The position numbers and the translations under genes were made by a program. A stretch of 64,000 bases of DNA, taken from NCBI RefSeq assembly GCF_044704955.1, contig NC_091980.1:130634001-130698000 (forward strand), in the 5' to 3' direction. The notes below the pieces were generated by a model. That model did no database searches and was not told where the DNA came from. It saw nothing but the letters and a program-made list of their open reading frames with translations. The DNA comes from Pristiophorus japonicus (Eukaryota). Of this stretch, positions 33,272 to 42,200 are shown in pieces (the first letter of the stretch is position 1; the number at the start of each line of letters is the position of its first letter).

Positions 33272-36200
33272 ATGGCTTCTCAAGTGCGTCAGAATTACCA
33301 CCAGGACTGTGAGGATGCTGTCAACAAGCAGATCAACATGGAGCTTTCTTTCTCCTATGTTTATCTCTCTCTGGTGAGTTTTGTGTTTTTGCCACTTTAC
33401 AATGGAGACTATGTAATGTGAATTTATGAAATCCTGTGCTGTACACAGCTCACCTCTTGCTCTCTTTCTGTCCACCCCGCCCTGAATCTATGCAGTGAAT
33501 TCACTTTTAAAGCCATAATATAATACAATTTATCTTAATTGGTATTTGTTAACAAATTCTCTCTGTTCCTTGTATCATCTGATTATCTTGATTCTTTCTT
33601 TTTCCTGGAATCTTGAGCTTGATTAAGTTTATTTGGAATACATTCTGCACACAATGCAAGGAATTCAGAATTGGTATCCTCATTCTAAATCACTGCATGG
33701 ATTGTCCTTACCTTGCTGGTTCAATGGGTGGTGTCATAAAAATAAATCTAAGCCATTTAGGAGGGAAGTTAGGAAGTATTCTTTCCCACAAGTGTGGTGA
33801 AAATCTGAAACACTTTCTTTCCCAGCCATCCCTCACCTCCACAGGGGGAGGATGGGAGGAAAGTGTTACAAATGTTTCTGCTTCCCTCCTGTTCCTAGTG
33901 TTTCTAACCTCTAAATTTTAAGTACCAGATTGTATCCTTTTTTTCCTCTAACTTTTAGCACCAATAAAGCAAAGAAAGTTCATCAATTGTCTACACCGTG
34001 GACTCTACCTTAACCCCTGTGATCTTCACCAAGCACCTCAAATTCTGAGGGGTTCTCCGAACACTTTTTTTTTCTGTGGTCTCTGCTTCTCCGCTACTGT
34101 GCCAAATTAATGCTGCATGTGGTAGTTTTAGTTCTTTGGCATGATTGTAGCCAGTATGTTAGCATGAATGTTTTCTCAGAAGAATCACTCAACACTCAGT
34201 CGGTTCCAATGCCCATGCGGGGAGGAAGCCTCAGGACTGGATCCAGGCACTTCTCTTCGACGAATGAAGAAACTCATCGATATTTATATGTTTTACAATA
34301 GTTCTTTAGTTACTCAGCCCACTTCGGCTGGTCACAATCCAATCATAATGATTATAAATTACATATTGGTTTCTTTAACCCAATAAAATTCCCCATATAC
34401 CTCAGGGGCTGTATGTTCGGTTTTGTCAGCTCGGGCTGATTAATGAACTCGTTATGTGAGGCAGGTTCTCCCCTTATCTCTGTTCCTCGTGGCTCGGCTG
34501 TGTGAAGTCACTGATTATACCAGTGTACTATAATGGTTCGTTATAATTATCTTGTATCCAAGGCATTCCTGGTAGTGGGCCTCACTAGGTCATTGCTCGG
34601 TCAGCCCCAGTTCATTACTTGACTAATTGAGTACCCATCATGGCTGGGCAGCCATTTTATGTGTGGCCACTTTAAACTTGAGTTTAGATATATTCAGCAG
34701 GTGCCTCATGCCAACAACAATTCTTCCCCCCCCCCCCCCCTTTCAGTAAAGGGACTAGTCCTAGTCCCCCTTTAACCGACCGTCCTACTTTTATTAGTTT
34801 TGTGCACGGCCTGGTACTCCCTGCCTCAATGTGCTGGCGAGTCATGTGGTTTCAGGAGTCCCAGTTGCTTAAATCAAATTAACAAAGGCCAAATCCTCCC
34901 CCTTTATTAGACAGGCTTGTTTAGTATTTGGGGACCGATCATGGGTCCCTCTTCATCGTGCTTGGTGCCTGCATGCCTGGCAGGCCATTCTGCCCCATGT
35001 TACTACTAAGATCAATGGTATCCCGACCAGTATGTGTGAAATTATTCGAATCCAAAGATGGATGTTGACATTTATTCCCCAGTCCCAGACCTTTCTCCAC
35101 CAACTCTGACTTTGTAAGTCTACTTCGATATCATCTTTCAGTACTTTGATTTTAGTTTGCAGTTGGTGGTAGAGCTTTACGGATTGACCCACCCTGAGCC
35201 TCAATTCTCGTAATACTTCGGTTAGATGTGGGATCGGGACCTGCTCTGGCTCGTCATAATCCTGCAAACAATCGTGGAGCTGATCGGTTACATCAGTAAC
35301 TTCAGGCTTCCGGTGCCTAACCTGGGTGATATGCGCTTGCCCGATTGTGACAGGTCATAGCGGCGCAAAGCAAATGTTCGGCTGTGGTATCGGGCACTGT
35401 AGGTCATTATACCAGTATGAACGCTCTGTGGTAGAGACGCAGTATCTTCCCTTCCCTCTGTAGCCTACCCTCGCGAAGTGCCTGTGTGCAGGCACTATTT
35501 CTAGTACACACCCATCGGTTCGGTTAAACCCGCTCTCGTCTAGCTCACCTTGTCCTACCGGGTGAGGGCATACTGTGATCTCCCCATTTACTTGCATTCT
35601 GTTAGGAAGATCCTGGTTTCTCCTCATCTCAGTCCCAAATGGCTGACCCCTAATCCTGAGACTGTGACTCCTGGTTCTAGACTCCCCAGACGGAGGGGAA
35701 ACAGCCTCCCAGTATCTAAGCTGAATTATATATGTCGTATGTTGTTTCGACGAACGGCGGAGGTGCTGGTCAGATAGTAACGTATGGAGACATTTTCCCG
35801 TATTACTCCGATATTCTCTAGTTGGTACAGGGGGAACGGCCCTGAGTCCAGCGTGGCTATAGGGATCATCAGGACTATCCCTATCCCAGTATTCCGACCC
35901 ATCTGGCAATCTGGAATTGCTGTGTGTACTCGGGTCAGTGCCTTCAGAGTACAATTATCCTTTGTCCCCATCTGGTTAGCCAACTGAGCCAAATGTGAAC
36001 TGTCTATCCAATCGGGTACTTCCCCGCGTTGGATCTGGTTGAGATTGTGGCGGATCTGTCCCACCATCCACAGACCATAAGCGTGACAGAGTTGCCCCAG
36101 TCTTTGCTTTCCTGTATATTATTTTTCTCTATCAATGAGGTGATTGATGGTTTTGGCGTGAGCTTCCAGGACTGAGATGCCATCCAACTGGATTTCGGCA

Positions 36201-39200: not shown

Positions 39201-42200
39201 CTGAGACAAGTAACCCCCCATGGTGCTCTCCTATTGTCTACACTACAGGAGTTCCATGTCACCCCACCCTTATCTTCTAGCCATTATCTCTTTCCGAGAC
39301 CTCATCCATTTGAAGCAAACAGGTAAACTGACCAGGAAATTGGATAATCCTGACACAATACAAGACAGGTGATAGCCCATTACCTATGACTCATGGAGTA
39401 ATGGCCGTTTGGCTTTCTGATAACGCTGACAAAAGGAAATATTTGGACACCATGTCAGGACCAGGATATAGTAATTAACTCTTTATCTGTATTCACTGAC
39501 TGTGAGACAGAGCAATACACAGGGAGAGGCCAGAACTTGGGTTTTACTGTATAAATATCTTGTGAAGCTGTACCATTGCGGAGGTGTTCATTTAGCCCTT
39601 GACTGAGTGAAACCTACCCCTTGCGAGCAAGTAAATTAAAAGGGAAACTTCTATCGGAGCTGTAAGTGTCGGAGTCATTCTTTTCTGAGGTCGAGATTTC
39701 GACAGCGTGTCAAATAAATTCTTTTTTTTAACCACCGGGACCATGTATTTTTTATCTTTTGTTCAACAAACCTATCCTTTGTACATTTCCTAGCTCCGTA
39801 ACTTATCATCCAAATAAATCCACACCTGTGTTTCTAACTTAAAATGTCTGAAAACTTCCCACATACAGGACAACACTACAAAGGGTTTAAAAAAAAAAAC
39901 TTTCACTCTGTTTAGAAAAGTGGGTGGAGCTAAAATAAACAGACACTTGCATTCCTCTTCCAACCAGGCTTTCGGAAACATGGAAACATAAAAAAATTCA
40001 TTCGGCAGTCAAGAAATCACAAGGACTCAACGACAGACATTCACAAAAGTCTCTCTCCATTCAACAAGCTTATTAATTTATTTTTTGGCAGGCTCTATTC
40101 TTGGATCCATACTTCACTTAAGATAAGCACTATCAGGTTTTTTTTAATTTCTTACATATTGATTTACTTCCTCTTAGTTTTATGTGGGCTCGCAGTATCA
40201 AAACTACAGCCTTTTCATTTTTATCTTTCTTTTCCTTCTCCCACCATTCTGCTGGTCTGCTGGCAGGTCCTAAGGATCCCACCCTGCTCTAATCATTTTC
40301 TCGATTTTGTTTCTTTTGTTTTTTCACCAGGTGGCGGGTAAGGGACCCTTCTGGTCCCCACTCGGTTATTTGTTTTATTGGCCATACCTGGGTAGGACTA
40401 GAACCATTACGAATCTACTCTCGGAGGTCCGCTTTCTATCTAGCGTAACTTGTAGTAGACCGTCTCCTGGCTACTGTCAGGTCACAAGTTCTGCTGTTGC
40501 ACAAACTTATTCAATTCTTAAAACGCGTTTAAGCAATTCCCGCAGTGCTCTACGTATCCTTAACGACTACCTACCACTGCTCTGCCTGTTGATCCGACCC
40601 TGTTCACAGGTTTGGATTCCGTTAGCTGCTGTAAACCGCTTGGTTCTACCCCGGGGTATATTTCAAATTACACTAATGGGTCCGGAAGATGTCTTTCAGT
40701 ATCGTGATCCCACAGTCCAAGTGTGTTCCCGGCACCTACTTAGTTCCTGGCCATCACGTGGGACTAAAGTCCTCTTAATTCAGGCTCAGGCTAGGTGTTT
40801 GAGATATTGGACTGTCTCCTCATGTTGATCTTCCAGCATCCACTTTCTGCACCGTTAGAACATTTTGTTTAAGGTATACTCACCCGGTTTCTCCAAGAGC
40901 GCCACTGTTAGCGTGAATGTTTTCTCAGAAGAATCACTCAACACTGAGTCGGTTCCAACGCCAATGTGGCCTTTATTTTTGCATGCAGGAAGGAAGCCTC
41001 AGGACTGGATCCAGGCACTTCTCTCCGACGAATAAAGAAACTCATTGATATTTATGTTTTTTTACAATAGTTCTTTGCAGTTACTCAGCCCACTTCGGCT
41101 GGACACAATCCAATCATAATGATTATAGATTACATATAGGTTTCTTTAACCCAATAGAATTCCCCATATATCTCAGGGGCTATATGTTCGGTTTTGTCAG
41201 CTCGGGCTGATTAATGACCTCGTTATGTGAGGCAGGTTCTCCCCTTATCTCTGTTCCTCGGGGCTCGGCTGTTTGAAGTCACTGATTATACCAGTGTACT
41301 ATAATTAACTTGTTTCCAAGGCATTCCTGGTAGTGGGCCTCACTAGGTCATTGCTCGGTCAGCCCCAGTTCATTACTTGACTAATTGAGTACCCATCATG
41401 CCTGGGCAGCCATTTGATGTGTGGCCACTTTAAACATGAGTTTAGATATATTCAGCAGGTGCCTAATGCCTAGTGTTTTGATATATTCAGCAAGTGCCTA
41501 ATGCCTACAACACTGTAAAACTCAGCTAGTTTTTCTCTTTTTTTTTATATACAATATGAATTCTGCACTGTGACTCGATCTCTAGTTTAGGAAGTTGCTT
41601 TGACTGCCAAGACTGCCTCTCAACTAGCCTGTACAAAATGTATTTGGGTTAATAACGTAGATTATTAGAGCATGCTACTGGTGACCAGGGTATAAATCTT
41701 GTGGCAACTCCTTCTCTAATTTCCAGAGCTACAATGAATATAGGGTGCCAAGATTAAGGTTCCAGTTTTAAGCATGTTCAATCAAAGCTGAATTGGTGAT
41801 TATGGAGTGATGCAGCACAGGAGGCCATTCAGTCCATTGTGCCTTGCTGAATGTTGGGTGGAGCGATACAACTGTTTCCATAGCCTGCAAATTTTTCTAA
41901 ATCATGCAAGAGGATGAGACTGGGGAATTAGTAATGGGCAACATAGAGATGGCAGAAAATCTGAACAAATATCTTGTATCTGTTTTGACAGTAGAGGACA
42001 GGAACAACATTCCAATGGTGGATAGTCAAGGGGCTTTCGAGGGGAGTTACTTAATGCAATAACAATCACCTGATGAGGTAGGACTCAGTAAGATAATTTG
42101 GGCTAAAGGCAGATAAATGTTCCTGATGGCTTGCATCCTAGGGTCTTGAGAAGTAGTGGCAGGGATTGTGGATGCATTGGTTGTAATTTACCAAAATTCC

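Follow-up and report, generated by a model that had tools for sequence, protein, structure and literature searches.

How does an endogenous retrovirus (ERV) with an envelope gene and no enzymes of its own multiply, and does the envelope still work? The question is raised by an element at positions 34157-41512, on the minus strand, of a 64,000-nucleotide stretch of the sawshark Pristiophorus japonicus (contig NC_091980.1), called the window below. The element lies antisense to a plus-strand ferritin gene, inside its intron 1 (33374-43478), where the original prediction had placed it. That prediction, made from the letters alone, proposed a non-autonomous element that kept a spliced env and borrowed Gag and Pol in trans. 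We conclude, with a probability of roughly 85%, that it is a dead copy of a defective ERV, likely spread by the proteins of intact relatives and carrying its broken env as a likely passenger. The copy in the window is dead, and nothing points to a role for it in the ferritin gene.

The short form is a large dispersed family

No protease, reverse transcriptase (RT) or integrase is present in the internal region, and a Pfam scan of its six frames gave no match above the cut-off; the element is non-autonomous, as proposed. The predicted absence of gag needs qualification. Gag of the intact relatives (hereafter helpers) matches the first ~75-88 codons, and the DNA standing in place of gag-pol, which we call the filler, ends in the decayed gag start of another ERV.

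Exact 22-nt motif matches, which are lower bounds, numbered 1,498 for env versus 109 for pol genome-wide. By these counts env-bearing copies outnumber pol-bearing ones about tenfold. Three samples of siblings agreed. An env search gave 20 dispersed loci, 19 with filler and one deleted across the middle. A search with the junction of long terminal repeat (LTR) and primer site gave 14, of which 13 were the short form and one had gag-pol. Contig C1 was sampled at intervals for a further 20 loci with the env motif; filler was found in 19, pol in none, and one locus was truncated. The genome thus holds many copies with the gag-pol-less, env-retaining layout.

Copies could also multiply by duplication at the DNA level rather than by reverse transcription, and around the window they did. 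Five neighbouring copies (L079-L083) share flanks (95-97% identical) and a 120-bp env insertion with the window copy, so that all six represent one integration duplicated with the surrounding ferritin array. The dispersed copies, on the other hand, sit on many contigs in differing flanks with their own target duplications, mostly of 5 bp. DNA-level duplication is therefore true only for the local ferritin-array set and is refuted for the dispersed copies; as the way in which the family spread it deserves hardly any credence. The two LTRs of a copy differ by 4.9-7.6% in the array (window, L079-L083) versus 0.7-4.0% in 28 dispersed copies near the window type. This roughly twofold divergence over dispersed copies of the same subfamily may mean that the insertion is older or that sequence changes faster inside the array. 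In PMC4422223, 3.3% divergence corresponds to 75 million years in elephant shark (papers are cited here from excerpts, to which all statements about them refer).

Intact relatives share the ends of the short form

The helpers were reached through a bamboo-shark homolog that begins with an integrase tail. With this tail as the query, 10 loci were fetched. Nine are gag-pol-env elements of ~9.4 kb or longer that share LTR, leader and env with the short form, and the tenth has no env; gag-pol partners, as proposed, are present in the genome. Six helper loci have LTRs within 0.7%, and in four all of gag, pol and env are open, gag and pol sharing a frame with a single stop between them. Helper Gag has CCHC knuckles (zf-CCHC match), and Pol comprises protease, RT, tether, RNase H and integrase. 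What the short form retains of a helper is its LTRs, primer site and leader, the start of gag, env and the polypurine tract.

The relationship can be followed through several subfamilies. The LTR of a mid-age helper nests among the LTRs of the window's subfamily. Its env is near-identical to that of the subfamily over codons 245-450 (synonymous divergence 0.007), while the subfamily's signal region instead resembles older short copies. In nine of the 20 env-motif short copies the two LTRs are at least 99.5% alike, and the primer site and env start of the youngest helpers surround the same filler. Locus L017 had been considered as a short copy with a young helper's LTR and was rejected, its U3 (unique 3') region being of another type.

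The same filler recurs across helper generations and LTR families

The filler is ~2.3 kb long in siblings and ~2.1 kb in the window copy minus a private insertion, and it follows a helper gag stub of ~88 codons. Over its 3' ~0.9 kb it has 72-92% identity with the leader and gag start of a different ERV family, D. The LTR of D is unrelated, and its Gag and that of the helper are 25-39% identical. Each of the 16 D copies fetched matches the end of the filler and then continues into gag. No source was found for the 5' ~1.3 kb. Exact matches to a filler motif number 1,246 genome-wide. Twenty such loci comprised 11 of the element's own LTR family, four of a second LTR family (B), one of a third LTR type, three of D type and one with a gamma-type env. 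At locus L119 (2855-7945, oriented) the filler is followed by part of an integrase and by a gamma-type env frame, 483 codons long. Locus L131 is a filler element with the third LTR type and a family B env; its primer site presumably resembles tRNA-Leu.

Twenty further family B loci all carry the filler, 19 carry env and none carries pol. No gag-pol helper for this family was found among these loci, which are the best matches to a short copy. The family B env is mostly a stub of the window-family env followed by a different F-like env. This order suggests that family B acquired the filler from an older short form of the window family.

These comparisons show that the middle of a helper was replaced by DNA whose 3' part came from another retrovirus, and that successive subfamilies have the LTR, primer site and env of the contemporary helper around the same filler. 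Helper enzymes likely package, copy and integrate the short-form RNA in trans. Exchange of this kind is usually explained by template switching between co-packaged RNAs; co-packaging with helper RNA and template switching in reverse transcription would renew the element's ends. Such renewal would explain why the env DNA stays close to the helper's although broken. The window copy arose by a single integration into the ferritin intron and was then duplicated with the array.

A bolder proposal, which we hold only tentatively and think somewhat less probable than its opposite, is that the 2.3-kb filler is itself the selfish unit. It would be a portable cassette that acts in cis, probably as a second leader for packaging set behind that of the helper. 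By recombining into the ends of each new helper it would have outlasted several of them, and it would have entered retroviruses whose LTRs are unrelated and whose envelopes differ (three or more LTR types and the gamma-env locus). If so, the element would be a lineage-hopping satellite of retroviruses and not a one-off defective. The young helpers would be simple vertebrate retroviruses with a compact F-like Env and an undescribed small membrane protein, and an F-type Env would appear old and widespread in aquatic retroviruses.

The env of the multiplying lineages is inherited broken

The predicted env remnant is present (Table 1), with a family-wide stop in codon 6, five further stops and four frameshifts. 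The codon-6 stop was found in all 28 window-type copies in which the region could be located (11 further short copies lacked the anchor), and in 77 of the first 100 of 324 env-start matches genome-wide. Younger short copies have lesions of their own. One frameshift is common to all 12 examined, which lie at different sites, and absent from eight helper copies; a second is common to six of the 12. A full env frame was found in none of the 20 env-motif copies. Rare variants in short copies hit 0-fold and 4-fold sites alike (ratios 0.77-1.4, none significant), and in helpers the ratio is 0.14-0.19 at non-CpG sites. Multiplying lineages thus carry inherited env lesions, and the earlier claim of a kept env, as far as a working gene was meant, is not supported. 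The env is most likely non-working in the short lineages, as judged from the sequences.

Several observations weigh against our interpretation. The sibling samples were drawn from best-hit lists or from contig C1 only. A sense codon stands at codon 6 in 23 of the first 100 env-start matches; 20 fetched starts of this kind belong to older short subfamilies, family B or fragments. Behind the codon-6 stop, four of 20 siblings have an open frame of at least 680 codons. A count of all variants shows a mild depletion of non-CpG transitions at 0-fold sites (0.74, p=0.01). Short-branch env changes are mostly silent (10 nonsynonymous to 17 synonymous, ratio 0.17). We read these changes as inheritance from an unsampled helper; selection in the short lineage would look identical. 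For the LTR type of one young short copy, no helper was found. Mobilisation in trans is itself inferred from sequence.

Some of these points would suit a division of labour, in which the short form makes Env from spliced RNA and provides it either to the particles of helpers poor in env or to the host, where it would block a receptor. Besides the silent short-branch changes, it can draw on the nearly whole env DNA of most copies, the open signal region of older short copies, the same env-retaining layout in the second LTR family and the retention of both splice motifs. The predicted donor and acceptor stand within a base of where they had been placed, and both are conserved in the gag-pol-env relatives. 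The donor-acceptor joint was not among the 15 joints listed out of 74 (four runs of unspecified kind, all 30 bins covered), a result uninformative on splicing. Division of labour is nevertheless hard to reconcile with inherited breaks near the env start in both lineages examined, with the lack of any full frame in the motif sample, and with young helpers whose own env is under purifying selection. We regard it as improbable and retain the passenger interpretation.

A second possible target of selection lies just upstream. Helper loci L045, L057 and L061 have a single-pass membrane open reading frame (ORF) of ~65 residues between pol and env that starts at the pol stop and is conserved in all three subfamilies translated; it possibly encodes an undescribed accessory protein. 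If the short form were maintained for this ORF, kept shortened with its own start codon, one would expect what is seen in most short copies of both tail types, namely an open shortened form spanning the hydrophobic stretch. However, 37-50 codons are often open by chance at such an age, no dedicated acceptor was identified, and some young copies are cut directly after the helix. We consider this even less probable than a supply of Env.

The Env is predicted to fold like a paramyxovirus F protein

The original prediction likened the Env to foamy-virus Env and paramyxovirus F. We modelled the natural frame of a sibling (698 aa, 50-row alignment), with moderate confidence scores (pLDDT 62, pTM 0.43). 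All PDB matches listed by Foldseek are paramyxo- or pneumovirus F proteins, with a best E-value of 5e-10 and TM-scores of only 0.2-0.3. With VIA, Newcastle disease virus F reached Z 10.2 (root-mean-square deviation (rmsd) 17.3, 293 aligned), metapneumovirus F Z 9.5 (rmsd 7.4, 277 aligned) and foamy Env Z 7.2 (rmsd 6.2, 268 aligned), against at most 5.6 for unrelated chains. The Env is thus predicted to fold like paramyxo- and pneumovirus F, as far as a model of this quality allows, in keeping with the likeness first noted. Among predicted viral structures, the Envs of walleye epidermal hyperplasia virus 1 (WEHV-1; 2e-15) and walleye dermal sarcoma virus (WDSV; 1e-10), lispivirus glycoproteins and baculovirus F outrank feline foamy Env (2e-5). 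The fold matches include Q9WHI8, A4GTG3 and A0A384ZVF2; Env models of walleye epsilonretroviruses are among those that match, and the top match carries no name.

Sequence profiles point the same way. The best match of the Env profile among PDB sequences is foamy gp130 (E 0.0074), which agrees with the motif likeness to the foamy transmembrane subunit (TM) noted earlier. In a small set of reference ORFs, the env of reference L172 and foamy envs are matched alike (best six, E 4e-6 to 3e-4), and gammaretroviral env only at E 0.3 or worse. An Atlas search with Env returned gypsy Env, baculovirus F and Fusion_gly clusters (0.91-0.94). Pfam gave no match above the cut-off on the env pieces (12 frames together with the internal region), the gamma-type TM included, and single-sequence searches of solved structures gave nothing useful. 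The post-cleavage part is ~460 aa, and the gamma-type combination of immunosuppressive domain, CX6CC motif and short TM is lacking, as the original prediction noted. The closest named homolog, from Pristiophorus, is 92% identical; further homologs are from other sharks and a ray, and frogs have distant ones. P0021, P0030, P0031 and P0043 are distant full-length F-like Env homologs from bamboo shark, two frogs and one further source, and one of them has a weak immunoglobulin V-set match in its surface part.

The helpers group with a snakehead-retrovirus-type reference

The best solved-structure match of the helper RT is murine leukaemia virus (MLV) RT. From this match we initially took the helper to combine a class I pol of epsilon-like type with an env swapped in from elsewhere, a view dropped after the RT tree and the approximately unbiased (AU) test. 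An initial 64-row tree in quick mode gave long-branch warnings and was rebuilt with 26 rows, the 38 dropped including the longest branches. The rebuilt tree, made without WDSV, WEHV, ERV-L and lokiretroviruses and hence without true epsilonretrovirus RTs, groups the helper with fish and amphibian ERVs and reference L172 at moderate support (87/96). The gamma plus fish class I group stands apart (100/98), as does the foamy clade (100/100). A grouping of the helper's clade with class I was rejected by the AU test (p=0.016), which places the helper RT outside the gamma plus epsilon-like references used. We infer that L172 is a snakehead retrovirus, because its late ORF overlaps the env end by ~14 codons, a layout as in PMC12193657. 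Because the helper RT groups with this type of reference, the helper lineage, going by its sequence, is not foamy and is probably not a lokiretrovirus. The other markers of foamy viruses bear on the same question: Spumaretrovirinae have a Gag without CCHC knuckles and pol in a separate frame, neither of which holds for the helpers.

Anatomy of the window copy and its surroundings

The features of the copy are collected in Table 1. The LTR pair, seen in the original prediction, differs at 27 of 550 aligned bases (4.9%), and the predicted polypurine tract is a purine run before the 3' LTR. The 5-bp target-site duplication matches at only four bases in the window copy; the same 3' flank word occurs in all five local duplicates, and in the four whose 5' end was correctly placed the match is five of five. 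What had been quoted as the primer-binding site (PBS) is actually the junction of a ~29-nt deletion. Intact siblings have an 18-nt PBS matching a tRNA-Ser(CGA) gene, with one such gene match genome-wide. In younger subfamilies the PBS matches or resembles tRNA-Ser(AGA), with 1,213 matches genome-wide. A long tandem run of tRNA-Ser(AGA)-type genes, spaced ~1.95 kb apart, occupies 14-20.5 Mb of contig C23. The private 678-bp insertion is likely a solo LTR of another element, and the 120-bp repeat in env may be CR1-like, of the long interspersed nuclear elements.

Table 1. Features of the element and of its host ferritin gene, in window positions
Feature	Positions	Strand	Basis or remark
Ferritin coding exon 1	33272..33373	+	ferritin match
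Target-site duplication, downstream copy	34152..34156	-	flank comparison
3' LTR, 563 bp	34157..34719	-	LTR comparison
Polypurine tract	34720..34740	-	purine run directly before 3' LTR
Broken env, F-like class I fusion protein (predicted)	34869..37115	-	comparison and fold prediction
120-bp common-repeat fragment within env	35617..35736		common to local duplicates
Candidate env splice acceptor TTTTCAG	37139-37133	-	conserved in gag-pol-env helpers
3' part of small single-pass membrane ORF	37297..37395	-	32 codons in this copy, against 46-50 in the majority of siblings and ~64-66 in the helpers
Filler in place of gag-pol	37396..40136	-	sibling, helper and family D comparison
Private 678-bp insertion, TG...CA, 4-bp duplication	39027..39704		window copy only among fetched loci
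Stub of helper's own gag, first ~83-88 codons	40137..40385	-	match to helper Gag
Candidate splice donor GTGAGT	40883-40878	-	conserved in gag-pol-env helper families
tRNA-Ser PBS remnant, interrupted by ~29-nt deletion	40893..40904	-	sibling comparison
5' LTR, 607 bp, TG...CA	40906..41512	-	LTR comparison
Target-site duplication, upstream copy, 4/5 bases match	41513..41517	-	flank comparison
Ferritin exon 2 (partial match)	43479..43611	+	ferritin match
Ferritin exons 3 and 4	near 48883-49032 and 49340-49456	+	ferritin match

The host gene is one of five ferritin genes in the window, with the start of a sixth (600-2900, 11979-17856, 22965-25474, 33272-49456, 54471-56964, and 62814 onward). These form part of a tandem array at 127.8-133.4 Mb of contig C4, to which well over 100 of the 150 exon matches listed belong; so large an expansion of ferritin is unusual. 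Weak minus-strand ferritin matches in the window at 4769-4867, 8156-8235 and 60213-60292 are probably due to chance.

Comparison with known systems

We found no description of this family in the literature, including the excerpts of PMC12583693, PMC13709493, PMC13524379, PMC6001957, 10.1101/2021.11.05.467493 and 10.1101/2023.10.17.562709; the repeat libraries Repbase and Dfam lay outside this scope and may already name these families. The suggestion of an undescribed chondrichthyan lineage stands in part. There are shark relatives, but PMC10924933 already describes this kind of layout, and a cartilaginous fish is known to carry snakehead-like ERVs (PMC4422223).

As regards Env, F-like proteins occur in foamy viruses (PMC11468914) and in lokiretroviruses (PMC7947760, where cartilaginous fish are not among the hosts given). 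Like foamy Env and paramyxo- and pneumovirus F, our Env has the predicted fold over residues ~160-550, with a basic cleavage site, behind it a stretch that resembles a fusion peptide, and then heptads and a beta-rich core (PMC11468914). It differs from foamy Env in its short N-terminal part without a foamy leader peptide, besides the distinctions in Gag and RT given above. Lokiretroviruses resemble the helper in an F-like Env with an RxKR-type cleavage site and in the tether plus RNase H (PMC7947760); unlike them, the helper has no smc-like gene and its RT falls among ordinary retroviruses, in a tree without a lokiretrovirus reference. The predicted Envs of WDSV and WEHV are among the best viral fold matches, but the helper RT is rejected from the class I group, its Env is much shorter, and no WDSV-type accessory ORFs were seen. 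Epsilonretrovirus Env has been described as distinct and uncharacterised (PMC3758190, PMC9967133), and the fold matches bear on whether a gamma-type or an F-type Env came first. If the model is right, the helper family offers a compact natural F-like retroviral Env outside foamy viruses and lokiretroviruses.

The helpers are closest to the snakehead retrovirus clade, which includes the elephant-shark CmiERV lineage I (PMC12193657, PMC4422223, PMC6001957). Besides the RT grouping with a reference of that layout, their gag and pol share a frame interrupted by one stop, and their Env profile weakly matches the reference's env. Unlike the snakehead retrovirus, they have a tRNA-Ser and not a tRNA-Arg-type primer site, and no 3' ORF overlaps the env end, with only ~150 nt from env stop to LTR; these are traits of the virus and not of the clade. 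They also differ from the reference in an Env of ~700 aa with its own signal peptide (the reference frame is 1,134 aa) and in the small membrane ORF between pol and env. No F-like Env has been described in the snakehead clade in the literature covered; Calcraft 2024 (Cell), outside that scope, may cover it.

Among known kinds, the short form comes nearest to trans-complemented defective ERVs, and at the level of sequence comparison it fits that kind on every feature that can be tested. Its LTRs, primer site, leader and polypurine tract are shared with a competent ERV and its centre is swapped. The multiplying lineage has no intact gag, pol or env, and its independent integrations, with their own duplications, outnumber the helper's. 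In the D-type ERVK of cattle (ERVK[2-1-LTR]), mouse ETn and koala recKoRV, the centre is likewise swapped for a piece of an old retroelement, a feature these three share, with flanks of gag and env (or pol) kept (PMC10924933; recKoRV1 is described in PMC6112702), and defective copies dominate new cattle insertions (PMC10924933). The sawshark element resembles the D-type, recKoRV1 and ETn/MusD in keeping the helper's LTRs, gag start and env end, in having no intact genes, in its size (~6-7 kb versus ~9.4-10 kb) and in the excess of defective over competent copies. It differs in its shark host, in its snakehead-like helper and in keeping nearly the whole env DNA. As a caution, high copy number of an env-retaining ERV need not mean a working env. 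What is new relative to the excerpted descriptions of those systems is that a single filler has lasted through several generations of helpers and is also present in unrelated LTR families. The pattern of a parasite's parasite seen in cattle, koala and mouse is thereby extended to a shark, where it lasts across helper replacements instead of ending with its helper.

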